Assembly (NCBI GenBank): GCA_028279645.1
Contig: JANQNJ010000002.1
Location: 1 to 58,905 of the forward strand
DNA length: 58,905 bases
From: Thermoplasmatota archaeon
GTDB lineage: Archaea > Thermoplasmatota > JAKEGO01 > JANQNJ01
Reading direction: 5' to 3'
The translations under genes were made by a program, and so were the position numbers. Positions 3,476 through 44,193 of the stretch are shown one piece after another (position 1 is the stretch's first letter; each line of letters begins with the position of its first letter). The notes under the pieces were generated by a model. It searched no databases. It was not told the DNA's origin and saw only the letters and a program-made list of their open reading frames with translations.

Positions 3476-4915
3476 TCAGAGGTGGATCGCCTTCGTCCTG
3501 GTGTAACCGGCCAGGCCCTCGAGCCCGAGCTCCTTGCCGAGGCCGCTCTGACGGAAGCCGCCGAATGGGACGGCAAGGTCAATGGCCGCATGCTTGTTGA
3601 TCCAGACCGTGCCTGCTTCCAGTCGTCCAGCGATATCCAGGGCCTTCTTGGCGTCTGCAGACCAGACGGAGGCTCCTAGCCCGTACTCGGTGGCGTTGGC
3701 CGCCTCGACGGCATCGTCGATATCGGAGAACGACATGATCGGTACCACGGGGCCAAACTGCTCCTCGGCCACGCTGCGCATGTCATCCACTACGTCTACG
3801 AGAACTGTCGGTGGATAGAAAAAACCGAACATGCCCGGACCGAACTGCTCCGGGATCGGCGTCTTCCCGCCGACCAGCGCCTTCGCCCCGTTGTCGAGGG
3901 CGTCGTCAACGAGCATCTCGATCCGTTTCTCCTGATACAGGTTCTGGATGGGCCCCATCTGCGTATCGCTCAGAGAGGGGTCGCCCACCAGCAGGTTCGA
4001 GGCTGTCTCGACGTACTTGCCCACGAACTCATCGTAGATCGCATCGTGAACATACAGCCGCTTGATGGCGATGCAGATCTGACCCGCGTTGGTGAAGCTG
4101 CTCCAGAAGACCGAACCGAGTTTGGACATATCGAAGTCGTCCATGATGATGGCTGGATCGTTCCCGCCGAGCTCGAGAGTGACCGCCTTCAGCGTACCGG
4201 AGGCGCCGCACATGACCTCCCTGCCCGTCTCGATGTGCCCAGTGAACGATACCTTTGCGATATCGGGTGACGAAACAAGCCGTCTGCCGGCATCGTCCAG
4301 GCCGGTTACCACGTTCACGGCCCCTTCGGGGAGGTGCTCGGATGCAATGAAACAGGCACGTGATACCGCAAGGGGGGCGGTGGGGGCGGGCTTCACGACG
4401 ATGGGATTGCCCGCTAGAAGCGCCGGAGCGCATTTCCAGGCGAATACTGTCAGTGGATAGTTCCATGGAAGGATGAGGGCCGATGGGCCGACCGGAACGC
4501 TTTCAAGAAGCGTCTTCGCATCCTCCGCGGGTGGGCCCTCGACGCACGTGTTGTCAGAGAGAAGATGCGATATCGGCTCGAACGGCGCCTCGGCGTAGTG
4601 CCGGAACGTCGCCGCCGCGCCTTTCACCTCGCGCCTTGCCTGCGCGGTCGGCTTGCCCACCTCGGACACGAGCAGTTCCGTCAAGAGCTCGATGCCGTCA
4701 ACGATCGCCTCTGATATTCGCATCAACGCGGCGCGCCGCTCCGCGAGCGGCGTGCCGGACCAGGATGGAAAAGCATTGCTGGCCGAAGCGATGGCGTTGT
4801 CGATCGTGCCCTTCTTGGAGTCAGTTACGACGCCGACGACGTCCAGCGTGGCCGGGTTCACGACCTCCATGGTCCCGTCGGCGCTCTCGTCAACAGTGAT
4901 ATCCTCGTCGTCCAT
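3476..4915 (-). CDS. NAD(P)+-dependent aldehyde dehydrogenase
   Basis: VVNPATLDVVG..., FPSWS..., ILPWNYPL, FTGHIETGREV, LELGGNDPAII, catalytic-Cys region NAGQICIAIKRLYVH, and EQFGPVVPIMSF. Start is ATG 4915, or GTG 4942 which overlaps the upstream stop as GTGA. Confidence 0.9.
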   Translation of the reverse strand: MDDEDITVDESADGTMEVVNPATLDVVGVVTDSKKGTIDNAIASASNAFPSWSGTPLAERRAALMRISEAIVDGIELLTELLVSEVGKPTAQARREVKGAAATFRHYAEAPFEPISHLLSDNTCVEGPPAEDAKTLLESVPVGPSALILPWNYPLTVFAWKCAPALLAGNPIVVKPAPTAPLAVSRACFIASEHLPEGAVNVVTGLDDAGRRLVSSPDIAKVSFTGHIETGREVMCGASGTLKAVTLELGGNDPAIIMDDFDMSKLGSVFWSSFTNAGQICIAIKRLYVHDAIYDEFVGKYVETASNLLVGDPSLSDTQMGPIQNLYQEKRIEMLVDDALDNGAKALVGGKTPIPEQFGPGMFGFFYPPTVLVDVVDDMRSVAEEQFGPVVPIMSFSDIDDAVEAANATEYGLGASVWSADAKKALDIAGRLEAGTVWINKHAAIDLAVPFGGFRQSGLGKELGLEGLAGYTRTKAIHL

Positions 4916-4938
4916 TTGGTATCCGCCCCGGTGTCGAT

Positions 4939-5946
4939 TCACATCTTCCAGAACTTCGATGCAAGCTCTCTCACGTCTCCGACGATGCGGGAGCCCTCGC
5001 GGTTCTCGGCCCAGTCCATCGGTTCTACCGCGGGCGTCTTGTCGGTGCCGACGGCGATCATGGCGGCGCCGACCTCGGCCATGATGTCGAGGTTGTAGCC
5101 GCCTTCAAGATAGAAGGCCAGCCTGCCGGCGCAGACCTCGTTGGCGATAGCAATAAGGTCGTTCACCGTCTCCATGTAGCCTTCGGATGAGAGTCCGAGG
5201 CCGGTGAGCGGGTCGTGCTTGTGGGCGTCCATACCCACGCTCACGAGCATGAGGTCAGGCTTGAACTCCGCGATGACCGGCGTGACGACCCGGTCCATGG
5301 CGGCTGCGAACGAGCTGTCGCCACATCCCATGACGAATGGGAAGTTGAGGGTGAAGCCGGACCCCTCCCCCCGCCCCAGGTCGACCCCCGCACCGGTGCC
5401 GGGGAAGATGCCGTAATGATGGGTCGACATGTAAAGGACGTCGGGACGCTCCAGGAAGATGTCGCTGGTACCGTTGCCGTGGTGCCCGTCGATATCGATG
5501 ACGGCCACGCGGTCCACGTCGCCCCGGGAGAGGGCGTGCTCTGCAGCAATGGCGATGTTGTTGAAGTAGCAGAAGCCGCCGCCGTAGTCCTTTCCGGCAT
5601 GGTGGCCCGGAGGCCTCATGAGCCCCATGCAGAGATCGCCGTTCATCGCGGTCTCGGCGGCGAGCACGCCGCCGCCTGCCGCGAGGCGCGCTATCTGCGT
5701 CGTGTCGGGATGAACGAACGTATCGGGATCGTAGGAGCCCTCGCCGATGGAGTCGATCCTGGCGATGTAGTCCGGGTCGTGGACCCTGGCCAGGAGCTCC
5801 TCGTCCACCGGCTCCGGTGTGAGTACCTCGGGCTCGATCTCCTCGGTCTTGAGACGGGCCATCAGGGAGACTAGCCGCTCGGGGCGCTCCGGATGGCCGG
5901 GATACTGGTTGTGATCGACATATCTCGGATGATATACTACCTTCAT
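4939..5946 (-). CDS. histone deacetylase-family Zn-dependent deacylase (AcuC / acetylpolyamine amidohydrolase-like)
   Basis: RPPGHHA, GFCYFNNIAIAA, VAVIDIDGHHGNGT, MSTHHYGIFPGTG, VSVGMDAHKHDPL, and LEGGYN are arginase/HDAC-superfamily signatures. Confidence 0.9.
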   Translation of the reverse strand: MKVVYHPRYVDHNQYPGHPERPERLVSLMARLKTEEIEPEVLTPEPVDEELLARVHDPDYIARIDSIGEGSYDPDTFVHPDTTQIARLAAGGGVLAAETAMNGDLCMGLMRPPGHHAGKDYGGGFCYFNNIAIAAEHALSRGDVDRVAVIDIDGHHGNGTSDIFLERPDVLYMSTHHYGIFPGTGAGVDLGRGEGSGFTLNFPFVMGCGDSSFAAAMDRVVTPVIAEFKPDLMLVSVGMDAHKHDPLTGLGLSSEGYMETVNDLIAIANEVCAGRLAFYLEGGYNLDIMAEVGAAMIAVGTDKTPAVEPMDWAENREGSRIVGDVRELASKFWKM

Positions 5947-6099
5947 GTGATCTGTTCAAGATAGCCCTAGGCGGTTATTGAACCTTTCCCAGCCCGGCGG
6001 CCTGACCTGTATCTGGGGGGTTGGTAGACCAGCCTCTATCAATCAGTATATATAACCGGCTGGTCCATTCACCGCCATAGACCGCATGGCCTTGATCCT

Positions 6100-6906
6100 A
6101 TGGCTGACACCAAGAAGATGTTCAATAACATCCTGATAGCCACGGACGGGTCCCCGAGGATGAGGGATGCCATCTCGTACGCGGGGAACCTTTTCCTTTT
6201 CTCCCAGTTCCACGTGCTCACCTGCGTCGATACCAACGTGGGGAGCCTGCATCAACCCAGCTTTCTGATAAAGATACTTGAGGAGCGGGCCGAGCTTGCG
6301 CTCCATGAGGCGGAGGACATACTGGGAGAGGTCGGAATAGATCCGATCGTGGTCCACGAGAAGGGAGATCCCGCCAAGGCGATCCTCCGCTACATCGACA
6401 AGGAGCACATCGACCTGATGGTGCTAGGGACCACGACCAGCGCTGGTTTCCAGAGGATCACGTTCGGAAGGGTGGGGGACAAGGTGGCGAAGAAGGCGAA
6501 GTGTCCCGTGCTCGTGATAAGCGGACCGGTGGACCCGCACGTCAACAGCATACTGAACCCAACCGACGGTCAGACGCACTCGGTGGAGGCGGGAGAGACG
6601 GCGATCAGGCTGGCCAAGTACTTCAACGCCAAACTGACGAAGTTCTACGTCGGAAGCGACCTTGACGAGGGCAGGCGGATCGTGAAGGAGGCGGAGGCAA
6701 AAGCGAAGAAGCTCGGCGTCAAGGAGGTGGGGAGCATCGAGATCGTCAAGGGGGATCCGGCCGCCCAGATCCTGGATATCGGGAAGGAGTACGATCTGAT
6801 AGTGATGGGGAATGGGCGGAGGGGATATCTCTGCAGGGACACTCTGTGCATCACCTCCAGGGAGGTCGCCGCAATGGCGCCTGCGCCCGTGATACTCGTC
6901 AGCTGA
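6100..6906 (+). CDS. tandem universal stress protein (UspA-family) domains
   Basis: Two Usp repeats: ...NILIATDGS...DLMVLGTTTSAGFQRITFGRVGDKVAKKAKCPVLVI and ...ILNPTDGQ...YDLIVMGNGRRG...SREVAAMAPAPVILV. Confidence 0.85.
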   Translation: MADTKKMFNNILIATDGSPRMRDAISYAGNLFLFSQFHVLTCVDTNVGSLHQPSFLIKILEERAELALHEAEDILGEVGIDPIVVHEKGDPAKAILRYIDKEHIDLMVLGTTTSAGFQRITFGRVGDKVAKKAKCPVLVISGPVDPHVNSILNPTDGQTHSVEAGETAIRLAKYFNAKLTKFYVGSDLDEGRRIVKEAEAKAKKLGVKEVGSIEIVKGDPAAQILDIGKEYDLIVMGNGRRGYLCRDTLCITSREVAAMAPAPVILVS

Positions 6907-28105: not shown

Positions 28106-28453
28106 ATGATGGTCACGAGCGTAGAGAAGGTACCACAGAAGGACGTCGAGGTGAAGGGAGCCGAAGGCGTGCAGATCCAGTGGCTCGTTGACAGGAACGC
28201 AGGGGCCGACAGGTTCGCCATGCGCCGATTCGAGCTGGCAAAGGGCGGCTACACCCCTGAGCACGCCCACGACTGGGAGCACGAGGTCCTTGTGCTGGAG
28301 GGCGAGGGGCAGGTCATCGAGGACGGTAGGAAGCCCCACGACGTCGCTTCGGGCAGCGTGATCTACGTCCCGCCGAACCAGGTGCACCAGTTCAAGAATG
28401 CAGGAGAGAAGAGCTTCGCGTTCCTCTGCTTGGTACCGGACCACGGATATTGA
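28106..28453 (+). CDS. cupin-domain protein
   Basis: ...GGYTPEHAHDWEHEVLVLEGEG...GSVIYVPPNQVHQFKN are the two cupin motifs (G.....H.H..E / P....H...N). Confidence 0.8.
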   Translation: MMVTSVEKVPQKDVEVKGAEGVQIQWLVDRNAGADRFAMRRFELAKGGYTPEHAHDWEHEVLVLEGEGQVIEDGRKPHDVASGSVIYVPPNQVHQFKNAGEKSFAFLCLVPDHGY

Positions 28454-28476
28454 TATCCCGATCACGGGTGAAGTTC

Positions 28477-28761
28477 ATGGAGATCATACTCGTCAACAAG
28501 GACAAGAACAGCATGGAGGTCGAGCTTCCGGGGACCAACGAGACCGTTCTCTCTCCCCTGGTGGAGGCCCTTCTGGACGACCCTAAGGTCGAGTTCGCGA
28601 CCTCGCTCAAGGGGCACCCGCTCCTCGAGAGGCCCACCCTTTACGTCCGCGTGACCTCGGGCAAGCCCCAGACCGCGTTCAAGAGGGCGGCGACCAAGGT
28701 GTCCAACCAGTACAAGGACGCCCTCGAGGAGATCGAGAGGCTCGTTCCCGCCGAGAAGTGA
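28477..28761 (+). CDS. rpoL: DNA-directed RNA polymerase subunit L (Rpo11)
   Basis: MEIILVNKDKNSMEVELPGTNETVLSPLVEALLDDPKVEFATSLKGHPLLERPTLYVRV... matches the archaeal RpoL pattern (E..GEDHT..N.L...L...P.V.FA.Y...HPL). 94 aa. Confidence 0.85.
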   Translation: MEIILVNKDKNSMEVELPGTNETVLSPLVEALLDDPKVEFATSLKGHPLLERPTLYVRVTSGKPQTAFKRAATKVSNQYKDALEEIERLVPAEK

Positions 28762-28898
28762 TGATAGCGATCAGGCAGGGAGACGCCTTGCCTTCTGTGT
28801 CAGTGAGAGTTCTAGCTAGAGGGTACTTTGGGAGAAGGGTATCTGAAGCGCAAGTATCATACGGTATGAGACCAAGTATCACCGGAGGTCGTGACGAT

Positions 28899-30290
28899 AT
28901 GACGATCGGGACCGGCATGGAGCGATATCTCACCGATCCGCCCGGTATCGGAGGCCGCCTGAGGGCGATAGCCGCCCACTTCAGGGTGGAGGAGGTTCCA
29001 TTTCCAGCTTTAAAAGGAACGGGCAGGAACCTCATGCTCGTCATAGAACTGGACAACTGGGAGACCAACAGGTTCGTCCACATGCTCGGGACCAGGCTCG
29101 GGATCAGGTCCGATCTGATCTCATTCGCAGGATTGAAGGATAAACGCGCCGTCACGGTACAGCAGTTCAGCCTCAGGGGGATGGGGGAGGGTGGGAAGAA
29201 CCCGATCCTGCCCTCTGCCAAGGTGGCGCCGGTACCGTCCGGTCCTTATTCGAAGGTCGCCACTGTTGACAGGCCAGGTCCCGAGAATGGCGTCGACCCT
29301 ATTGCTGCCTTCGTGCAGAACAAGATCGACCTAAACGGAGTGTCTGTACTGGACGCGTTCTCGACGGACAGCTCGCTCAGACCAGGCGGCCTTGTCGGGA
29401 ACCGGTTCCGGATAGTCGTCACTGATCCGGACCTGGTCGGCCAGGCCCTTGAGGACGAGATCGCCCGGATCCAGGGCCAGATGGAGGCGGTGGGCGGTGC
29501 GCCGAACTTCTTCGGCGTCCAGCGCTTCGGCGCGGTACGGACCAATACCCACCTCGTCGGCCTGAAGGTCCTGAACGGCGACTTCATGGGAGCCGTGGAC
29601 GAATATGTCGGAAAACCACGGCAGAATGAGCCGGATGCGATCAAGGAGGCCCGCGCGGCCCACGACCGAGGAGATCCGCCGGAGGACATCATGGACATGC
29701 TCCCGAAGGAGTATTCCTACGAGAGAATGCTCCTATCGTCCCTGGTTCAGTACCCGGACGAGCCCCGCCGGGCCTTCGAGAGGCTTCCGGCAACGCTGCG
29801 CCGAATCTTCATCCAGGCCGTCCAGGCCTACGTCTTCAACAAGATACTGTCGGCCCGCATGGAAGAGGGACTTCTCGACCCCGTGGTCGGCGATACCGTC
29901 CTTCCCATGGACGGGAGATTTCCAGATCGACGCAGATGGATACCCGTGAGCGACTTCAACCTCCCGAAGATCCAGGAGCAGTGCTCCAGGGACAAGGCGA
30001 GGGTCGCAGGGCCGCTGCCGGGGTCGGACATTCCGCCGATGACCGGCCGCCCTGGTGAGATACACGATGCGATCCTTGAGGAGTTGGGCCTCACGCGGGA
30101 ATCCTTCCTGACCCCGGAAATGCCCGAGATCGGATCGAAAGGCAGGTTCAGGGAGCTCGTCACCCCGGTACAGGACCTTATCTTCGAACCGGAACCCCTG
30201 CCGACCTTCTCCTTCTTCCTCTCCAAAGGGGTCTACGCCACGACGATCATGCGGGAGTTCATGAAGGTCGGCGACCCCATGGCGTACTAG
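28899..30290 (+). CDS. truD: tRNA pseudouridine synthase TruD (archaeal Pus7-type)
   Basis: GMERYLTDPPGIGGRLR...HFRVEEV, FAGLKDKRAVTVQ (catalytic Asp), and FFGVQRFG. GGAGGT lies 9 nt before ATG 28899. Codons 28761-28898 use rare A/T-ending codons, so they are treated as non-coding. Confidence 0.85.
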   Translation: MTIGTGMERYLTDPPGIGGRLRAIAAHFRVEEVPFPALKGTGRNLMLVIELDNWETNRFVHMLGTRLGIRSDLISFAGLKDKRAVTVQQFSLRGMGEGGKNPILPSAKVAPVPSGPYSKVATVDRPGPENGVDPIAAFVQNKIDLNGVSVLDAFSTDSSLRPGGLVGNRFRIVVTDPDLVGQALEDEIARIQGQMEAVGGAPNFFGVQRFGAVRTNTHLVGLKVLNGDFMGAVDEYVGKPRQNEPDAIKEARAAHDRGDPPEDIMDMLPKEYSYERMLLSSLVQYPDEPRRAFERLPATLRRIFIQAVQAYVFNKILSARMEEGLLDPVVGDTVLPMDGRFPDRRRWIPVSDFNLPKIQEQCSRDKARVAGPLPGSDIPPMTGRPGEIHDAILEELGLTRESFLTPEMPEIGSKGRFRELVTPVQDLIFEPEPLPTFSFFLSKGVYATTIMREFMKVGDPMAY

Positions 30291-32473: not shown

Positions 32474-32594
32474 TGGTGCAGGGGGAGGGATTCGAACCCA
32501 CGAACCACTTCTGGACAGGATGGCTCATCAGGACCCCGCGACCGGAAACCCGATCTTAAGTCCTGCGCCGTTGGCCAAGCTTGGCTACCCCTGC
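32474..32594 (-). tRNA. tRNA-Leu (anticodon UAA), class II with long variable arm, genomically encoded CCA, 33-nt intron at canonical 37/38 position
   Basis: Minus strand: GCAGGGG-TA-GCCAAGCTTGGCCAACGGC-G-CAGGA-CTTAAG[intron]A-TCCTG-TCCAGAAGTGGTTC-GTGGG-TTCGAAT-CCCTC-CCCCTGC-A-CCA. The 7-bp acceptor and 5-bp anticodon stems pair perfectly. The T stem has one U-U mismatch. The variable arm CCA/GAAG/TGG is like other archaeal tRNA-Leu. Confidence 0.9.
32522..32554 (-). other. tRNA intron with bulge-helix-bulge (hBHBh') splicing motif
   Basis: Intron ATCGGGTTTCCGGTCGCGGGGTCCTGATGAGCC. The central 4-bp helix pairs C32-U33-U34-A35 with intron UGAG. The 3-nt bulges A36-G37|A and C-C|A38 each carry a splice site after their second nucleotide. 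Inner 5-bp helix UCGGG/CCUGA. Confidence 0.85.
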
Positions 32595-35194: not shown

Positions 35195-35573
35195 TGCGCC
35201 ATACTCCTCTCTTGCTTCGCCCTCAAAAATCCTCTGGTATATATAACTAGCTGTGAAAGTGACGGAGATCGCCCTTATTAAGTTGATAACTGAACACCGA
35301 AGGTCATTGTGTGGGGGTGAAGGTGGGGCCTGACATCCGTTCCTATCCTTTATTCAATTAATACCAAAGATAGGTCCATTCTGAATTTACTTTATTAATT
35401 AATCAGAGTATAGATGGTTCACCTGTAATTCTTTGGTTATACCCTGGTGCTAACCTGGCAGTCTATATATAGTCTGCATGGCATCTTTGCATTGCGAAAG
35501 GAGCAGGAACTATCCCGAGAGGGCTAGAACTGTTCACTTTCGGCGAGCAATCGCGAATCAGGAGGAAAAGAAA

Positions 35574-36332
35574 ATGTGGCAGAAGTTAGCGGCAATGGCC
35601 CTCGTGGTCACTATGCTGACAACGCTGGCATACAGCACATCCGCGGAAATGGCTGCACCCACGGTGGATTTCAGTCAGACACCGACGGAACAAGCGGACT
35701 GGGTTTTCATCGCAGCAGCGCTGCACGACCCTGTGAACTATATGGACGACCCTGATTATCAGGAGGCCATGGCCCTGCACGACTACTTCTTGGGTCTCGG
35801 TTTCGATGAGGAGCATATCATCCTTCTCGTCGACTACGACACCATGAACCCCATAGTCGACGGCGCGGCCACCAAGGGCAACATCTTTGCGGCCCTTGAT
35901 TTCCTGGCTACCGTGTCCACCTCGGACAGTTTCCTATTCATTGGGATCCTGAACCTTGGACATGAGAGCGGGGACGGCTTCTGGGTCCAGCTGAGCGACG
36001 AACCTCTGTACGACTGCGATCTGGATACGAAGCTGGACGCACTGACGTACGACGAGATGGTCGTTACGCTGGTCTTCAGGTACTCTGGCGGGTTCCTGCC
36101 AGAGATCGGCCAGAGCGGCAGGCTCTGCATTGCGAGCTGTAAGAACAACATCGACGTGGATACCGACTTCAGGCTGTCCAACGCCCTTACCAACCCCAAC
36201 GCGGATTGGAACGGCAACGGCAGGATCTCCTTCGAGGAGGCCTTTTGGGACCAGTGGTCCTGGGCGAACTGGGAGTACAACCCCACCGCCAAGGACAAGA
36301 TCTGGGGCTCGGTCTACGCACCAGGCGCTTGA
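35574..36332 (+). CDS. secreted legumain/caspase-fold (peptidase C13-like, clan CD) paralog 1, type A; nucleophile Cys replaced by Tyr; C-terminal EF-hand loop
   Basis: AGGAGG Shine-Dalgarno 8 nt before ATG 35574. Signal peptide MWQKLAAMALVVTMLTTLAYSTSAE. Motif order follows legumain: DWVFIAAAL / DPDYQEAMALHDYFLGLGFDEEHIILLVDYD / NPIVDG / ATKGNIFAALDFL / SFLFIGILNLGHE (His-Gly) / VVTLVFRYSGGF (Cys position) / LCIASC. Also DWNGNGRISFEE and a C-terminus ending VYAPGA*. Confidence 0.8.
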   Translation: MWQKLAAMALVVTMLTTLAYSTSAEMAAPTVDFSQTPTEQADWVFIAAALHDPVNYMDDPDYQEAMALHDYFLGLGFDEEHIILLVDYDTMNPIVDGAATKGNIFAALDFLATVSTSDSFLFIGILNLGHESGDGFWVQLSDEPLYDCDLDTKLDALTYDEMVVTLVFRYSGGFLPEIGQSGRLCIASCKNNIDVDTDFRLSNALTNPNADWNGNGRISFEEAFWDQWSWANWEYNPTAKDKIWGSVYAPGA

Positions 36333-36575: not shown

Positions 36576-36737
36576 GGTCTTTACCCCCCCGGCGGATCAG
36601 GCGCGGAATGCCTAGGGGTATCACAGATAGCACACTTGCAGTTAAAGCTCTAAAAATAAAAAAAGGCGATAAGGTTGCCTCCTTCTATCGTCTACGCCTC
36701 TGAGAGAGTTTTACCCCAATACAGCGAGCACATCTTC

Positions 36738-36928: not shown

Positions 36929-36982
36929 TGGTTATTTGGGTTATAACCATCGATCTATCGTTATAACCAAATTCGGGTTATA
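36929..36982. promoter_or_regulatory. cluster of GGTTATAACC palindromes / GGTTAT half-sites upstream of paralog 2
   Basis: cattGGTTATttgGGTTATAACCatcgatctatcGTTATAACCaaattcgGGTTATAtac. Perfect 10-bp palindrome at 36939-36948, about 140-190 nt upstream of ATG 37119. Confidence 0.4.
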
Positions 36983-37118
36983 TACTTCGAACGCGTCGTT
37001 CTTTTTCCTACGAGGTAGAAAAGCTTCGTAGGGACCTTGAGATATCAAGGGCTCGCCGCCGGATTAGGCGCCGGCGGTCAATAGGTGACGAAAATAGATA
37101 GAAGGAGGCAAGAACAAG

Positions 37119-37895
37119 ATGTGGAAAAAGGCTGTAAGTATGGGCTTTGTCGCTATGCTGATGATGACGCTTTTCACGGGTGTCACAGGCGACATGGCCG
37201 CGCCGACCGTAGATTATAGCGGTTACAACACCGCACAGGCCGATTGGGTCCTGATCGCCGCTGCACTGCACGACGAGGCAGGGTTCTTCAACGATCCGGA
37301 CTACCAGGAGGCAATTGCTCTGCACGACTATTTTGCGAGCATAGGCTTTGATGAGGAACATATCATCCTGCTCGTGGACTTCGATCTGGCAAACCCGATC
37401 GTTGACGGACCGGCGACCAAGGGAGATATCTATCACGCCCTTGACTTCCTCGCCACCGTGACGACCCCCGACAGCTTCGTGTTCGTCGGGATCCTCGATC
37501 TCGGCCATGAGAACATGCAGGGATACTATGTCGAGCTGAACGACGAGCCGCTCTACGATCACGAGCTGGACGCCAAGCTCGATATGCTTCAGTATGAGGA
37601 TCTCGTTGTGGACCTGGTCTTCAGGCACGCCGCCGGCTTCTTCGACTACATCGCGGAGGATGGCAGGCTCTGCTTCGGATCGACCAAGGACAACAAGGAC
37701 CTGGACGTACCGTTCCATATCTCCATTGGTCTTCAGGACATGGAGGCCGACCAGGAGTTCGGCAACGGCAACGGCAGGATCGCCTTCGAGGAGGCTTACA
37801 AGTACGAGAAGGATCGCTTGAGAGACATCGACGATTCCTTCAAGCCCAAGAAGGACGACGAGATATCCGGAAAGGTTTACGCCCCCGGAGTATAA
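37119..37895 (+). CDS. secreted legumain/caspase-fold paralog 2, type B; Cys position is His
   Basis: GAAGGAGG Shine-Dalgarno. Signal peptide MWKKAVSMGFVAMLMMTLFTGVTGD. Same motif order as paralog 1 with LDLGHE retained and LVFRHAAGFF at the Cys position. FGNGNGRIAFEE loop; ends VYAPGV*. Confidence 0.8.
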   Translation: MWKKAVSMGFVAMLMMTLFTGVTGDMAAPTVDYSGYNTAQADWVLIAAALHDEAGFFNDPDYQEAIALHDYFASIGFDEEHIILLVDFDLANPIVDGPATKGDIYHALDFLATVTTPDSFVFVGILDLGHENMQGYYVELNDEPLYDHELDAKLDMLQYEDLVVDLVFRHAAGFFDYIAEDGRLCFGSTKDNKDLDVPFHISIGLQDMEADQEFGNGNGRIAFEEAYKYEKDRLRDIDDSFKPKKDDEISGKVYAPGV

Positions 37896-38506: not shown

Positions 38507-38553
38507 TTGGTTATAACCATCGATTTTCAAAACACCCCCAATGTTATAACCAA
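38507..38553. promoter_or_regulatory. GGTTATAACC palindrome pair upstream of paralog 3
   Basis: cttGGTTATAACCatcgattttcaaaacacccccaatGTTATAACCaaa. Same TTGGTTATAACCATCGAT core as upstream of paralog 2, about 140-180 nt before ATG 38691. Confidence 0.4.
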
Positions 38554-38690
38554 AGAGGGTTCAAATACTTTCGAGCCGAGTATCAATGTGAGTCTCGGGT
38601 TGAGATTCCGTGACAATGGTGGAAGATAAGGGGCCTGCACCGACGGGGTGCAGCATCAGAGGCGTAGAATCATAGAAGGAGGCACCAAGA

Positions 38691-39467
38691 ATGTGGAAGA
38701 AAATAGCTGTCATGACCTTTTCGGTGATGATGGTACTGACGCTCTTCTCGGGCGTGACCGCCGAGATAGCAGCGCCGACGGTAGACTATAGTGTGTATAA
38801 CACGGCAGAGGCCGATTGGGTCCTGATCGCCGCTGCCCTGCATGACGAGGCAGGGTTCTTCGATGATCCGGACTACCAGGAGGCAATTGCCCTGCACGAC
38901 TACTTTGTTAGTATTGGGATAGATGAAGAACATATCATAACTCTGATCGATTTCGATCTGGCCAACCCGATCGTGGACGGACCTGCGACGAAGGGAGACA
39001 TATATGCCGCTCTCGACTTCCTCGCCACCGTGACGACCCCGAACAGCTTCGTGTTCGTCGGGATCCTCGATCTTGGCCACGAGAACGAGCAGGGATACTA
39101 TGTCGAGCTGAACGACGAGCCGCTCTACGATCACGAGCTGGACGCCAAGCTTGACATGCTACAGTACGAGGATCTCGTCGTGGACCTTGTCTTCAGGCAC
39201 GCAGCCGGCTTCTTCGACTACATATCGGAGGATGGCAGGCTCTGCTTCGGATCGACCAAGGACAACAAGGACCTGGACGTACCGTTCCATATCTCCATAG
39301 GTCTTCAGGACATGGAGGCCGACCAGGAGTTCGGCAACGGCAACGGCAGGATCGCCTTCGAAGAGGCTTACAAGTACGAGAAGGATCGCCTGAGAGACAT
39401 CGACGATTCCTTCAAGCCCAAGAAGGACGACGAGATATCCGGTAAGGTGTACGCCCCCGGAGTCTGA
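38691..39467 (+). CDS. secreted legumain/caspase-fold paralog 3, type B'
   Basis: GAAGGAGG Shine-Dalgarno. Signal peptide MWKKIAVMTFSVMMVLTLFSGVTAE. Same length as paralog 2, with a near-identical 3' two-thirds. Confidence 0.8.
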   Translation: MWKKIAVMTFSVMMVLTLFSGVTAEIAAPTVDYSVYNTAEADWVLIAAALHDEAGFFDDPDYQEAIALHDYFVSIGIDEEHIITLIDFDLANPIVDGPATKGDIYAALDFLATVTTPNSFVFVGILDLGHENEQGYYVELNDEPLYDHELDAKLDMLQYEDLVVDLVFRHAAGFFDYISEDGRLCFGSTKDNKDLDVPFHISIGLQDMEADQEFGNGNGRIAFEEAYKYEKDRLRDIDDSFKPKKDDEISGKVYAPGV

Positions 39468-40157: not shown

Positions 40158-40916
40158 ATGCTTAAGGAGGCGACCAGTGTCGTAGTAGCAGCGGCACTCC
40201 TGTTAACCATGCTTTCAGGAGTTTCCGCCGAGATGGCAGCACCAACGGTAGATTTTTCCGAAATGCCTACCGGCCAGGGGGACTGGGTTTTCATCGCAGC
40301 AGCGCTGCATGATCCCCTGGACTATCTGAACGATCCTGACTACCAGGAGGCCTTGGCCCTTCACGACTATTTTGCGGGACTCGGATTCGACGAGGAGCAC
40401 ATCATCCTGCTCGTTGACTTCGATACGACGAACCCCGTTATAGATGGAGAGGTCACCAAGGGCAACATAATGGCAGCGCTCGACTTCCTCGCGGCGGTGT
40501 CGACGGAGGACAGCTTCGTCTTCTGCGGCATCCTGGATCTCGGCCACGAGGGCGGAGAGGGCTATTACGTCGAACTGAACGACGAGCCGTTGTACGATCA
40601 CGAGCTCGATGCGAAGCTCGACGCCATAGACTGCGACGACCTGGTGATCAACCTCGTGTTCAGGTATTCCGGCGGATTCCTGCCGGAGATCGGTCAGTGG
40701 GGCCGGCTCTGCATCGCGTCGTGCAAGAACAACATCGACGTTGACACGGACTTCCGCCTGTCAGTAGCCCTTACTGACCCCAATGCAGACTGGAACGGCA
40801 ACGGCAGGATCTCCTTCGAGGAGGCGTTCTGGGACCAGTGGTCCTGGGCCAACTGGGAGTACAACCCGACCTGCAAGGACAGGATCTGGGGCTCGGTATA
40901 CGCACCGGGAGCCTGA
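40158..40916 (+). CDS. secreted legumain/caspase-fold paralog 4, type A'
   Basis: GGAGG lies 8 nt before ATG 40158. Signal peptide MLKEATSVVVAAALLLTMLSGVSAE. LDLGHE retained; LVFRYSGGF at the Cys position; DWNGNGRISFEE; ends VYAPGA*. The C-terminal ~90 aa are almost identical to paralog 1. Confidence 0.8.
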   Translation: MLKEATSVVVAAALLLTMLSGVSAEMAAPTVDFSEMPTGQGDWVFIAAALHDPLDYLNDPDYQEALALHDYFAGLGFDEEHIILLVDFDTTNPVIDGEVTKGNIMAALDFLAAVSTEDSFVFCGILDLGHEGGEGYYVELNDEPLYDHELDAKLDAIDCDDLVINLVFRYSGGFLPEIGQWGRLCIASCKNNIDVDTDFRLSVALTDPNADWNGNGRISFEEAFWDQWSWANWEYNPTCKDRIWGSVYAPGA

Positions 40917-41059: not shown

Positions 41060-43750
41060 CTACTTCTTCTTTCCGCCCTTCTCGGCCTCGTTGAGCTCCT
41101 TGAGCTCCTTCTCCACACGGTCTATCAGGTTGCCCTTGCCGTGCTCCTTGTATATCGTCATGGCCTCTTCGAGATACTTCCGGGCGTTCTTGTTGTCGCC
41201 CTTCTTCTTGTACATCTGGGAGTAGAAATAGTACCGTTCGGCGAGGTTGAACGGCATGTCGATCTCCTGGACGATCTTGATCGACTCGTCGAAGTGCTTC
41301 ATCGCCTCGTCCCAGTTGCCCAGCTCCGAGTAGACCTCGCCGTAGATCTGGTGGACGTAGGACTCGCCGATCCGGTCCTCCATGGAGCGCAGGATGGAAT
41401 ATGACTCTGAAAGATACATCAGCGCCTCTTCGGTCTTGTTCTGCTTGCTGAGGACGCTGCTGACGTTGAGCAGGGCGTAGGCCAGGCGCTTCGTGTTGGC
41501 AGTGTTCCGGGCCAGCTCTATGCACCGCTCCCAGCTGTTCCTGGCGTCGTCGAGGTTGTTCAGGATATAATGGGCCACTCCGAGCTCGTTGTAGGCCCTT
41601 CCAACGCGGTAGTTGTCACCCTGGTCCTCGAAGTACTTGATGGAGCGCTCGCAGACCTCCACGGCCTCGGTGGAGCGGTTCATCTCGTTGAGGACCATGG
41701 CCTCGTCGATGAGGGCCTCGTTGGATACCTCCTCATCCCCGGCGGCCTCCGCGCTCTCCTGGGCCCGGACCATGTACTCAAGGGCTCGCTTGTGGTCGCC
41801 GCGCCGCAGCTGGATCTTTCCCAGGCCGCGCATGGTGTCCGCCTCTGCAGATCGGTCTCCAAGCTTGGCGGCCTCGTCCAGGGCCATCTGGAAGTAGTCC
41901 ACGGCCCGATCGAGGGTCCCCTTCTCCATCTCCAGGTGGCCGATCTGCCTGAAGGCGTGGGACCGGACCTTGTAGTTGGTGCTGGAGCAGGACTTGAGCG
42001 CGGTGTGGTACTTGTCGAGCGCCGCCTCCCATTCGCCCTCGGCGAAGAAGAGGTCGCCCGATATGAGCATCATTCCGTAATGGTAATCGGTGGGGATATT
42101 GTCCTCGAGCTTCTGGATGACGACGTGGAGCTCATCGAGGAGTCCCCGGTTGATCATCATGCGGCCGTTGTCCACCAGGATCTCGGCGGCGGTGTCGAAG
42201 TCCTCCGCCTCCAGGAAGTGGAGCGTGGCGGAAAGGAGCGAGCTGAGGTCGCCCTTGCCCTGATAGTACGTGGCGGCGAGCGTGTGGTTCGACTGCCGTT
42301 CCTCCGGTGTGAGCCGGCTGTAGGCGAGCTCACGCACGATGTCGTGGAGGTATATCCCCTCGTAGGGGATCTCCTGGAGAAGATCGTGCTCGATGAGGGC
42401 GTCGAACGCCTCGTAGGGGAGCCCGGCCACCGACAGGGCCTCGTGCTCTATGGGATAACGGTAAACGGAAGCGAGACCCAGGAGCTGCTGCTCCTCGGGC
42501 TTGAGCTTCGAGAAGATCTCGGAGTTCATGAAACGGTGGATATCGGACGGACGACGCGCGTCGCCCGGCGTCCTGATCAGCTCCAGCGCCAGCGGATGGC
42601 CGCCGGTCATCTGGATGATCCTGTCGACGTCGTCCTCCGGGATACCCCTGGCCATCAACAGTTCCTTCGAGCTGATCTCGTCGAGACCCTTCAGGCGGAT
42701 CTCGCCGATGGTCCCGCGGACGCGCACCTCCCTCCGGTCGTAGAAGTTCGGCTGGATCCTGGATGTGACCAGGATCTTGACCTCCTTGCCCCGGAGGACC
42801 TGGTGGAAGAGCTTGAACATCGTCTCCAGGCGCTCGGGGTTCTTGTGGTAGTCGTCGTAGACCAGGATCGCCTGCATCCCTTCGAACGCCTTGTCCAGGA
42901 TGTTGTAGAGCTCGCTGTAGTTGATCGTCTTGTTCGTCTTGAGATAGGACTGCAGGTCCCTCTCCGATAGATGCGAGAGGAACTCGCCCAGCGGCGTGAT
43001 GGCCGCTCTGACGGTGTCCCACTCGTGGAACTGGTACCAGAAGAGGTTCGCCTTGTCGGCGAACTCGTTGATGATGTGATAGACCAGGGTGGACTTGCCG
43101 ATACCGGGGATACCGGTCACCACGCCGATGCGGATGTCCGACTCGAGCCACTCCATGATCTGTCCGACCTCGTCGTCCCTTCCGAAGAACTGCTTCAGCG
43201 GGGGCTGCCCCTCTGTGTACTTGATGTACTTCGGCCGGTCCTCTCCCGCGTCCTTGCCGGTCTCGTAATCGACGACGAGGGAGTCGAAGTCGAGCTTCGT
43301 GGTGTTGAGGTCGTCAAGGGTCCTGACGAGCTTCAGAAGCGGGAACTCCGGCGGGAGCTTAGAGAGGACCTCCTTCAGGGTGTACCTGTTGACCTTGCCC
43401 TTCTCGGTGACGGAGAGCTCCGCCTCCTCGATGTTGTCCAGGATCTCCGTCCCCTTCTCCATGCCAATGGCTGTGAGGAAGTAGACGGCTCTGCGCCGGG
43501 ACTCGCCGGTCACGGTGCCCGAAAAACGATCGACGAGGCCCTCGGTCTCGAGGTCCTTCATGGCCCTTGGAACGTGGTTCCAGCGGATGCCGACGGCGTC
43601 GGCGATGCCGGGCTGGGATATGCCGATGGGAGTCGATTTGTAAAGTTCGTCTCCGGGATTTGCGTCAGGGGCGAACCTGTCTTTAGGGAAGGTTAGAAGA
43701 TGGAGTAGTATCTTTTCCTTTACGGTGATGGGGTTCTTTCGCCCTGGCAT
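41060..43750 (-). CDS. STAND ATPase: N-terminal winged helix + NB-ARC/AP-ATPase module + C-terminal TPR array (896 aa)
   Basis: wHTH (GISQPGIADAVGIRWNHVPRAMKDLETEGLV), Walker A GVVTGIPGIGKSTLV, Walker B AILVYDDYH, VLVTSR-like KILVTSR, and TGGHPLALELI (the GxPLAL signature of NB-ARC). About 450 aa of TPR-like repeats follow (...AFRQIGHLEMEKGTLDRAVDYFQMAL..., ...YFYSQMYKKKGDNKNARKYLEEAM). Confidence 0.85.
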   Translation of the reverse strand: MPGRKNPITVKEKILLHLLTFPKDRFAPDANPGDELYKSTPIGISQPGIADAVGIRWNHVPRAMKDLETEGLVDRFSGTVTGESRRRAVYFLTAIGMEKGTEILDNIEEAELSVTEKGKVNRYTLKEVLSKLPPEFPLLKLVRTLDDLNTTKLDFDSLVVDYETGKDAGEDRPKYIKYTEGQPPLKQFFGRDDEVGQIMEWLESDIRIGVVTGIPGIGKSTLVYHIINEFADKANLFWYQFHEWDTVRAAITPLGEFLSHLSERDLQSYLKTNKTINYSELYNILDKAFEGMQAILVYDDYHKNPERLETMFKLFHQVLRGKEVKILVTSRIQPNFYDRREVRVRGTIGEIRLKGLDEISSKELLMARGIPEDDVDRIIQMTGGHPLALELIRTPGDARRPSDIHRFMNSEIFSKLKPEEQQLLGLASVYRYPIEHEALSVAGLPYEAFDALIEHDLLQEIPYEGIYLHDIVRELAYSRLTPEERQSNHTLAATYYQGKGDLSSLLSATLHFLEAEDFDTAAEILVDNGRMMINRGLLDELHVVIQKLEDNIPTDYHYGMMLISGDLFFAEGEWEAALDKYHTALKSCSSTNYKVRSHAFRQIGHLEMEKGTLDRAVDYFQMALDEAAKLGDRSAEADTMRGLGKIQLRRGDHKRALEYMVRAQESAEAAGDEEVSNEALIDEAMVLNEMNRSTEAVEVCERSIKYFEDQGDNYRVGRAYNELGVAHYILNNLDDARNSWERCIELARNTANTKRLAYALLNVSSVLSKQNKTEEALMYLSESYSILRSMEDRIGESYVHQIYGEVYSELGNWDEAMKHFDESIKIVQEIDMPFNLAERYYFYSQMYKKKGDNKNARKYLEEAMTIYKEHGKGNLIDRVEKELKELNEAEKGGKKK

Positions 43751-43941
43751 TTGCGGGTCTCCCGATTTCCGCCCCGTATCGATTAGGGCCTATTTCCGGA
43801 ATAATAACGGATATGTTTATAATAAAGGTTTCGTGGCGGTAATTTTACCCGCGTCGGTCTGGAGTGGTAGCGAAGGTCGGCTGGGGTATGGGCCGCGGTT
43901 CGGCGCAACCTACATCAATCACGATTTGGGTAGATGCTGTG

Positions 43942-44193
43942 ATGGCGAAGGGAACAGGACCGGATATCCGATCATCATTGATCACCGAACGGATCGATGC
44001 GGCGGCTCTTGAACTGCTTGAAGGACATCCAGATGGACTGAGGTGGTCGGAACTGTTGGCCAAGGTTCTCGGATCCGACCCCGCCTTTCATCCCAAGACC
44101 GCCAACGGTCGGATATGGCGGCTCGCGGAGAACTACCCCGACATCGTTTACAAACCGTCGAAAGGTGTCTTCCGGTTGGTGAGTTTCCGATAG
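43942..44193 (+). CDS. small winged-helix protein (Mrr_N/HARE-HTH-like), 83 aa
   Basis: ATG 43942. ...IDAAALELLEGHPDGLRWSELLAKVLGSD...NGRIWRLAENYPDIVYKPSKGVFRL. Divergent from the STAND gene. Confidence 0.5.
   Translation: MAKGTGPDIRSSLITERIDAAALELLEGHPDGLRWSELLAKVLGSDPAFHPKTANGRIWRLAENYPDIVYKPSKGVFRLVSFR

Follow-up and report, generated by a model that had tools for sequence, protein, structure and literature searches.

We examined a 58,905-nucleotide stretch of DNA from a Thermoplasmatota archaeon (assembly GCA_028279645.1, contig JANQNJ010000002.1; hereafter the window), in which a gene for an 896-amino-acid STAND ATPase lies convergent on an array of four genes for exported proteins that resemble legumain but have lost its catalytic residues. 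We are confident that the ATPase is a STAND transcription factor, a designation that carries no claim about its targets. Going one step further, we lean toward the view that it is a ligand-activated transcription factor that acts on the pseudo-legumain genes through a candidate palindromic operator, GGTTATAACC. This proposal is supported by the architecture and clade of the ATPase, its recurrent linkage to pseudo-legumain genes, the congruent relationships of the two families, a conserved cis-element, and the fact that no other regulator recurs at the paired loci. We found no prior description of the pairing in the literature. The genes, and the parts of the STAND protein, are arranged as follows.

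35574..36332 (+), paralog 1: 252 amino acids counted from MWQK, an exported, Cys-less, legumain-like protein
37119..37895 (+), paralog 2: 258 amino acids
38691..39467 (+), paralog 3: 258 amino acids, 91% identical in amino acid sequence to paralog 2
40158..40916 (+), paralog 4: 252 amino acids counted from MLKE, convergent with the STAND gene
41060..43750 (-), STAND gene: 896 amino acids, ATG start, uninterrupted open reading frame (ORF); winged helix-turn-helix (wHTH), nucleotide-binding oligomerization domain (NOD, composed of nucleotide-binding, helical and winged-helix domains), arm, tetratricopeptide repeats (TPR)
43427..43729 (-), N-terminal wHTH head: about residues 8-108, from the AlphaFold2 model and profile matches
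42311..43198 (-), NOD ATPase core: about residues 185-480, from motif positions and aligned to residues 7-298 of PH0952
41063..42310 (-), arm plus TPR sensor: about residues 481-896, from Pfam, AlphaFold2 and Foldseek

A preliminary description of this DNA had named a Walker A motif, a Walker B motif and the sequence TGGHPLALELI in the 896-residue reading frame, and had placed its stop 143 bp from that of the fourth paralog. All three motifs are present where they had been reported, and the ORF coordinates confirm the distance: the last nucleotide of paralog 4 is 40916 and the stop codon of the STAND gene starts at 41060, leaving 143 bp between the convergent genes. The motifs of the ATPase core are listed here.

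Residues 188-195: hhGRExE-type motif, FFGRDDEV
Residues 213-221, nucleotides 43088-43114 (-): Walker A, GIPGIGKST
Residues 295-302, nucleotides 42845-42868 (-): Walker B (hhhhDD), ILVYDDYH
Residues 328-334, nucleotides 42749-42769 (-): sensor-I-like TSR, VTSRIQP
Residues 382-392, nucleotides 42575-42607 (-): GxP motif, TGGHPLALELI, with GGHPLAL at residues 383-389
Residues 468-470: MHD-like LHD, within YLHDIV (residues 467-472, nucleotides 42335-42352, (-))

The protein carries the features that characterize the STAND superfamily, namely a P-loop nucleotide-binding domain with Walker A and B motifs, hhGRExE, GxP, and a C-terminal winged-helix domain with an MHD-like histidine, and residues F188, R191, G213, G218, K219, D299, R331, G384, H385 and P386 are invariant over 28 STAND homologs. 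In Pfam scans, NB-ARC (PF00931) passes marginally, with 26.1 bits against a gathering cut-off of 23.5 and coverage of model positions 2-138 of 248 alone, and ATPase_2 (29.0 bits) falls under its cut-off of 33.2. The TPR side is strong, with TPR_12 at E = 5×10−34 and TPR_MalT at 76.8 bits against a cut-off of 45. An AlphaFold2 model computed from the 28 homologs (mean predicted local distance difference test score, pLDDT, 86.1) shows a head at residues 10-108 with three helices and a beta-hairpin, a second small alpha/beta domain at residues 109-165, the alpha/beta and helical NOD, and approximately 20 paired helices that span residues 482-895. The order of winged helix, STAND core and TPRs proposed in the preliminary description is therefore upheld by Pfam and the model, but its TPR length of about 450 residues is not, since the model assigns about 410 residues to arm and TPR together. 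The Pfam scan returned no nuclease, protease, TIR or SIR2 effector domain, and the protein has no signal peptide, unlike the neighboring paralogs.

The modeled secondary structure of the N-terminal head comprises helices at residues 10-18, 46-53 and 57-69, strands at 73-80 and 86-92, and a helix at 94-108, with the candidate recognition helix at about residues 57-69 (NHVPRAMKDLETE). Pfam matches on residues 1-180 include HTH_Crp_2 and GntR at E = 9×10−4 as well as PadR, TrmB and MarR, all of them sub-threshold. A profile made from ten N-termini matches exclusively wHTH transcription factors in the PDB (SlyA/MarR, TcaR, CRP/Vfr and PadR; best E = 0.003), and homologs of the STAND protein carry precomputed MarR_2 or HTH_Crp_2 matches and JGI names such as ‘MarR family’. 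These separate lines are weak in score yet concordant, and they support a predicted winged helix. No CARD or death-fold match was found on the protein with Pfam; its additional N-terminal parts are the wHTH and the small alpha/beta domain.

Comparisons with known structures indicate the clade to which the protein belongs. The best match in a phmmer search of the PDB is 6mfv, the structure of PH0952 (E = 6×10−24 over residues 180-485), and among the PDB matches listed it alone aligns through the NOD, the rest being restricted to the TPR region. Foldseek also ranks 6mfv_A first (E = 7×10−20, template modeling (TM) score 0.74 over 718 columns), ahead by nine orders of magnitude, followed by the MalT sensor 8bob_C (TM 0.73 over 416 columns), whereas CED-4, Avs3 and a plant resistosome reach TM scores of only 0.2-0.3. 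From these two rankings and the shared domain order, the protein appears best classed as PH0952-like. The earlier NB-ARC label has its marginal Pfam pass, but PH0952-like is the more precise term, with 6mfv the best match by both sequence and fold. As given in the accessible text of Lisa et al. 2019 (PMC6468293), PH0952 is predicted to be a transcription factor and has an ArsR-like DNA-binding domain (DBD) at its N-terminus, a NOD, an arm and a TPR, its TPR sensor autoinhibits the NOD, and its clade and the APAF1 clade are sisters, with MalT basal. The earlier statement that either of two readings would represent a new module is consequently overstated for the STAND protein itself, which is a further member of a clade that the accessible text already predicts to consist of transcription factors; the pairing and the target set are what is new.

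Homologs with E ≤ 1×10−10 number about 100 in the protein collection and come almost entirely from metagenome-assembled genomes of Thermoplasmatota. At least 271 relatives occur in GTDB species-representative genomes of this phylum in varied housekeeping contexts, and some genomes hold several copies, as with P0012 and P0013 on one contig. This distribution bears on whether the protein could be an antiviral, Avs-like STAND sensor whose TPRs recognize a viral protein. Many prokaryotic STAND-TPR proteins are defense sensors (PMC13581612), and Avs3 is among the fold matches. Nonetheless, we regard a defense role as very unlikely: PADLOC yields generic TPR matches and a weak match to mad8 (E = 0.006), the effector domains sought with Pfam are missing, the surrounding genes are housekeeping genes with no defense island, and the members of the family are spread over varied housekeeping contexts.

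The partners of the STAND protein can be placed only through their relatives. A Sec-type signal peptide opens each of the four paralogs. None of the direct scans of them with Pfam, NCBIfam or PADLOC gave anything usable, no Pfam threshold being reached, and among 5.8 billion protein clusters the only close relatives outside the window are two proteins, P0004 and P0005. A paralog profile search that used no word index retrieves 522 relatives at E ≤ 1×10−3 and 35 at E ≤ 1×10−10. Pfam Peptidase_C13 (PF01650) is matched at E ≤ 0.01 by 17 of the top 40 relatives (best 8×10−15) and Peptidase_C14 by two of them, and the gathering cut-off of the C13 model, 22.8 bits, is exceeded by nine of ten larger relatives. 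A joint alignment reveals that the distant relatives retain D-H-G and C-x-S-G-G-F, in place of which the window family has D-[LW]-G-[HY] and R-[HY]-[SA]-[GA]-G-F. The column of the catalytic cysteine is occupied by arginine, and that of the histidine by leucine in the four window copies and by tryptophan in P0004 and P0005.

An AlphaFold2 model of paralog 2 from six sequences is poor (pLDDT 52.6), and its top Foldseek matches, which are metacaspase, legumain and caspase, all of clan CD, are not significant. We therefore place the homology call on the profile evidence. On the strength of transitive profile homology, the paralogs are assigned as exported, catalytically dead legumain-like proteins (family C13, clan CD), a family that apparently has been undescribed so far. 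This agrees with the earlier view of the neighbors as clan-CD-fold, exported and Cys-less, and the canonical histidine proves to be displaced as well. Profile scans of genome and metagenome contigs with the paralog alignment gave no new locus beyond the contig of P0005.

Two further features of the pseudo-legumain family are apparent. A D/N-x-N-G-N-G-R-I-S/A-F-E-E-A loop is conserved in all four paralogs and their relatives (36210-36254, 37764-37808, 39336-39380 and 40794-40838), and it gives sub-threshold EF-hand and dockerin matches in the relatives, which make it a probable Ca2+-binding site. A C-terminal V/T-Y-A/T-P-G/E motif is conserved in all close family members.

The properties of the two proteins speak to an Apaf-1/caspase-like pairing, which the preliminary description had put forward as one of its readings. 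In such a pair, the STAND oligomer would recruit or activate the clan-CD proteins as Apaf-1 and CED-4 do caspases. The relationship of the PH0952 clade to the APAF1 clade (accessible text of PMC6468293) and the conserved linkage to clan-CD homologs are in keeping with this idea, and CED-4 is present among the fold matches, albeit with a TM score of ~0.2-0.3 against 0.74 for PH0952. However, the partners carry Sec-type signal peptides and the STAND protein does not, both catalytic columns are replaced (arginine for cysteine; leucine in the window, or tryptophan in P0004 and P0005, for histidine), the extra domain of the STAND protein is a wHTH rather than a CARD or death-fold adaptor, and none of ten large C13-like relatives is a STAND-C13 fusion. 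We consider an apoptosome-like pair extremely improbable and have set that reading aside.

We surveyed the pairing from the pseudo-legumain side, and the list below covers loci with downstream DNA, the contigs of P0113, P0114, P0115 and P0117 being too short or without DNA. The conserved co-occurrence beyond the window that the preliminary description had proposed to look for is indeed found: on four further groups of metagenomic contigs, whose flanks differ, a pseudo-legumain gene is followed by a convergent STAND/TPR gene (three clear cases, one weak), and the pairing is absent from one contig. Identities of partner proteins are to the window paralogs, and those of STAND proteins to the window STAND protein.

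L001 (P0004): partner 54-61% identical; convergent STAND fragment, 54% identical to residues 484-886
L006 (P0111): partner 28-33%; convergent full STAND of 894 residues, 36% identical; 3′ ends overlap by 15 bp
L007/L008 (P0112): partner ~26%; convergent TPR C-terminus, 36-47% identical
L093 (P0261): partner 28-30%; convergent TPR C-terminus, 28-31% identical and colinear to the end; 14-bp overlap; weakest case
L003/L004 (P0005): partner ~51%; convergent neighbor unrelated, non-STAND
L009 (P0113): partner ~25%; downstream side uninformative

The pairing persists down to ~27% partner identity, while the upstream flanks vary by locus (cupin/RpoL/TruD, an HD-domain gene, or a Ras-like GTPase with PAS genes) and the divergent neighbors of the STAND gene, compared across loci, are unrelated genes that are not conserved. 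The STAND gene is the sole regulator-like gene consistently present at the paired loci. A neighbor-joining tree of the shared C-terminal 386 residues joins the window with L001 and L006 with L007 as sister pairs, and the similarities among the partner proteins give the same groupings.

Both the window and L001 have cupin-RpoL-TruD within a few kilobases, and the L001 case is thus partly inherited synteny. In L001 this block (4714-6606) directly adjoins the pseudo-legumain gene, and in the window (28106-30287) it lies ~5 kb upstream. The comparison implies an insertion of ~5 kb in the window between the TruD block and the paralogs, containing genes for a phosphoribosyltransferase, a major facilitator superfamily transporter, a membrane protein with a domain of unknown function, and a tRNA.

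The intergenic DNA of the array contains the candidate operator. Five copies of the 10-bp palindrome GGTTATAACC with at most one mismatch occur in the window, all of them upstream of paralogs 1-3, where 0.67 would be expected; none of 100 shuffles reaches five. A loose degenerate expression for the palindrome matched many coding sites by chance and served only as a locator, not for counts. Copies 1-3 each bear two palindrome sites, as listed with the putative promoter of the STAND gene, which was read from the sequence.

35435..35471 (+), paralog 1 promoter: GGTTATACCC (35435-35444), GGTGCTAACC (35446-35455), 8 nucleotides, TATATATA (35464-35471)
36939..36985 (+), paralog 2 promoter: distal GGTTATAACC (36939-36948), proximal CGTTATAACC (36959-36968), 9 nucleotides, TTATATAC (36978-36985)
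38509..38567 (+), paralog 3 promoter: distal GGTTATAACC (38509-38518), proximal TGTTATAACC (38542-38551), 8 nucleotides, TTCAAATA (38560-38567)
43816..43849 (-), putative STAND promoter: TATA-like TTTATTATAAA (43816-43826) and inverted repeat GGTAAAATTACC (43838-43849), 11 nucleotides upstream of the TATA-like element

When promoters of the window copies (W1-W3) are aligned with those of the partner genes in L001 and L006, a fixed layout emerges in which the palindrome is followed after 8-9 nucleotides by the TATA box in W1, W2, W3 and L001, and L006 has GGTGATCACC at the same position.

W1: 2-mismatch palindrome GGTGCTAACC, spacer TGGCAGTC, TATA-like TATATATA; GGTTATACCC lies directly upstream of this proximal site
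W2: palindrome cGTTATAACC, spacer AAATTCGGG, TATA-like TTATATA
W3: palindrome tGTTATAACC, spacer AAAGAGGG, TATA-like TTCAAATA
L001: palindrome GGTTATAACC, spacer AAGTAAGAC, TATA-like TTAAATA
L006: palindrome GGTGATCACC, spacer AAGAAAGAT, TATA-like TTAAATA

Exact GGTTATAACC is found once in the 1.25 Mb of the 93 fetched loci, and this single occurrence lies 9 nucleotides upstream of the TATA-like box before the L001 partner gene, in intergenic DNA that is otherwise unalignable to the window. The regulatory role that the preliminary description had suggested for the palindromes gains weight from this fixed distance to the TATA box, kept in a divergent genome. In archaea, activators and some repressors act at sites that abut the region of the TFB recognition element (BRE) and TATA box, and the occurrence of sites in pairs would suit a multimer that binds cooperatively.

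These observations leave little room for a purely coincidental adjacency in which the palindromes would be left over from tandem duplication. Copies 2 and 3 are recent duplicates, as their 91% amino acid identity attests, and shared motifs could have been inherited. Nonetheless, their coding regions are 80-94% identical in nucleotide sequence but their spacers have diverged save for three islands: one is the distal palindrome, another holds the proximal palindrome and TATA box, and the third is the ribosome-binding site. The exact palindrome in L001 stands amid unalignable DNA, and the pair itself occurs on four other contig groups. Recurrence of the pair and conservation of the palindrome largely refute a coincidental origin, which we judge very improbable.

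Several other features of these non-coding regions were noted. The inferred 5′ leaders, deduced from TATA positions, are ~80-115 nucleotides long (37005-37125 and 38590-38697 in the window, 6880-6966 in L001, and 1745-1865 in L006). Unusually stable folding is predicted for the W2 leader (-41.3 kcal/mol, z = -3.76) but for none of the other three, and we rejected a conserved structured leader as a shared feature. The ribosome-binding region of paralog 2 has a 15-nucleotide exact inverted copy (GATAGAAGGAGGCAA; 36675-36689 versus 37097-37111) 407 nucleotides upstream in the same spacer; this could act as an anti-ribosome-binding site if co-transcribed, or could be a remnant of an inverted duplication. 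The L006 STAND promoter (~5250-5300) contains the half-site ATCACCAA, which is half of the L006 GGTGATCACC palindrome, 7 nucleotides upstream of TTTTATA. Together with the inverted repeat at the window STAND promoter, this half-site makes autoregulation of the STAND gene possible. The promoters of two STAND orthologs, P0008 (L002 9883-10005) and P0007 (L090 180-250), have in common a conserved stretch ahead of the start codon, AAAGTGTTTTATG(N)CC(N)ATCC...ATTATCTA, which is unrelated to the GGTTATAACC element.

We propose the following mechanism. At rest, the cytoplasmic STAND protein would hold ADP in its NOD and be clamped by the TPR sensor. A ligand that binds the arm/TPR region would open the NOD and relieve autoinhibition, ADP would be swapped for ATP, and a head-to-tail multimer would form that gathers the N-terminal winged-helix heads on DNA. 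The likeliest operator is GGTTATAACC, directly upstream of the BRE/TATA region of copies 1-3. The most likely effect of the multimer there would be to activate transcription by aiding recruitment of TATA-binding protein (TBP) and transcription factor B (TFB), although repression by occlusion is also possible. We infer binding of GGTTATAACC by the window STAND protein from genomic association and the conserved position of the site; the sign of regulation and control by a ligand are likewise conjectural. The ligand-sensing transcription factor postulated in the preliminary description is our preferred reading, with the convergent pair now found on four other contig groups, but its control of the whole array is curtailed: it applies at most to copies 1-3, since paralog 4 has no palindrome.

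A number of findings weigh against STAND control of the pseudo-legumain genes. Paralog 4, upstream of which no palindrome is found, is the gene nearest the STAND gene. Conversely, the relative in L003/L004 (P0005) has a similar promoter-proximal element, GGGAATCACC AACGAACC TATATTTA, and yet its convergent neighbor is unrelated and non-STAND. The closest full-length STAND homologs, P0007 and P0008, share a near-identical recognition helix, yet no pseudo-legumain gene or palindrome was found in the available DNA around them: the neighbors of P0008 (34% identical) are instead coiled-coil genes and a gene for a large CARDB protein, and no C13 gene lies within 1 kb of P0007. The downstream neighbors of other family members are heterogeneous, and 79 of 80 GTDB loci of the STAND family (23-35% identity) have no C13-like neighbor, which confines the link to one STAND sub-branch. 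Moreover, the linked cases span two lineages only, so that shared ancestry inflates their count; three of the partner STAND proteins are known as C-terminal fragments only, and L093 rests on TPR similarity alone.

Part of this evidence would also suit a different scenario, in which the STAND protein is a transcription factor whose targets do not include the pseudo-legumain genes. The palindrome would then be bound by another factor, and the adjacency would go back to inherited gene order or to co-transfer of a two-gene cassette, with no direct regulation. A promoter cannot be common to two convergent genes, some synteny is inherited (cupin-RpoL-TruD being common to the window and L001), paralog 4 lacks the site, L003 has a related element with no STAND gene downstream, and the homologs P0007 and P0008 have the same recognition helix and no such site nearby. 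On the other hand, the adjacency is kept to ~27% partner identity amid unrelated flanks in L006, L007 and L093, no other regulator gene recurs at the paired loci, and the background chance that a given family lies immediately downstream is very low. We accordingly view non-target adjacency as rather unlikely, though it is an alternative to be taken seriously, and retain the STAND protein as the candidate regulator of copies 1-3.

A more speculative extension is that the TPR sensor reads a peptide or processing product tied to the exported pseudo-legumains, or their unexported precursors. This would create a feedback loop, and with it an archaeal functional partnership between the sister clade of APAF1 and the caspase-legumain superfamily that is older than the eukaryotic apoptosome and possibly ancestral in logic. 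Because the pairing is conserved and the relationships of both families are congruent, the data are compatible with such a loop, but we think it improbable.

Among the 80 GTDB loci, the only one with a C13-like neighbor is L067 (10001-15075, Thermoplasmata chromosome CP070751.1). It encodes a TPR-less wHTH-NOD protein of 540 residues, followed on the same strand by a signal-peptide protein of 994 residues with beta-helix/NosD repeats and a C13-like region. We take this locus as a second, independent STAND/C13-like adjacency in a different geometry.

Two other features of the window deserve mention. Divergent from the STAND gene is an ORF at 43864-44193 (+) of 109 amino acids, probably 83 when counted from MAKGTG, which has no Pfam, NCBIfam or PADLOC match and lacks homologs in all fetched loci; from the pattern of its sequence it may be a small winged-helix protein. 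At 32477-32594 (-), Rfam reports one tRNA that spans 118 nucleotides for a model of 71 positions and ARAGORN reports none, consistent with an intron-containing archaeal tRNA.

The locus offers a concrete triplet of a regulator, a 10-bp palindrome beside the BRE/TATA region, and a small conserved target family, and this triplet could open a first way to learn how the TBP/TFB machinery of archaea is engaged by a STAND multimer. The pairing and the candidate operator render an uncharacterized family of archaeal regulators experimentally approachable. They also counsel caution when origins of programmed cell death are inferred, as a genomic association of NB-ARC-type and clan-CD genes can be regulatory rather than apoptosome-like. 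A mild evolutionary resonance is nevertheless present in a sister clade of APAF1 beside a clan-CD gene, although this is not a new kind of system.

As with Apaf-1/CED-4 and caspase-9/CED-3 in the apoptosome, the window combines a NOD from a clade sister to APAF1 with a genomic partner from the caspase-legumain superfamily (clan CD). However, a CARD is missing from the STAND protein, the partner is an exported protein without the catalytic dyad, and the link is genomic and probably regulatory, not a physical scaffold. The partners differ from legumain and other members of family C13 in being short (~230 residues when mature), without a prodomain, and with both catalytic columns replaced.

Among bacterial regulators, MalT of Escherichia coli (LAL/MalT clade) is a STAND activator of transcription that depends on ATP and an inducer and has a TPR-like (SUPR) sensor, and it binds repeated sites upstream of the promoters it targets. 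The likeness is limited to the sensor of the window protein (TPR_MalT at 76.8 bits; 8bob_C at TM 0.73). The DBD of MalT is a C-terminal LuxR-type HTH, whereas that of the window protein is an N-terminal wHTH; Pfam gives no LuxR/GerE match on the window protein, which scores 62.3 bits against a cut-off of 537 with the NCBIfam MalT equivalog NF003420. The basal transcription machinery of archaea is also unlike that of the MalT host. GutR (Bacillus subtilis) and AfsR (Streptomyces) are transcription activators that share with the window protein the order of N-terminal DBD, NB-ARC-type NOD and TPRs. With MalT, they are established non-immune DBD-NOD-TPR STAND regulators (PMC13581612). The AfsR model of NCBIfam matches the TPR region of the window protein at E = 8×10−19, but its 67 bits fall far short of the equivalog cut-off of 1430, and these regulators are bacterial and have other types of DBD (SARP/OmpR-type in AfsR).

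The closest known counterpart is PH0952 of Pyrococcus horikoshii (6MFV), which is archaeal, has the same order of winged-helix DBD, NOD, arm and TPR, and is likewise predicted to be a transcription factor (PMC6468293, accessible text). The two proteins are ~20% identical over the fold alignment, and the window protein is longer, with the extra small domain at residues 109-165 and more TPR pairs. The accessible text of PMC6468293 does not give a target gene, operator or ligand for PH0952, whereas for the STAND protein described here a candidate target family and a candidate operator can be named.

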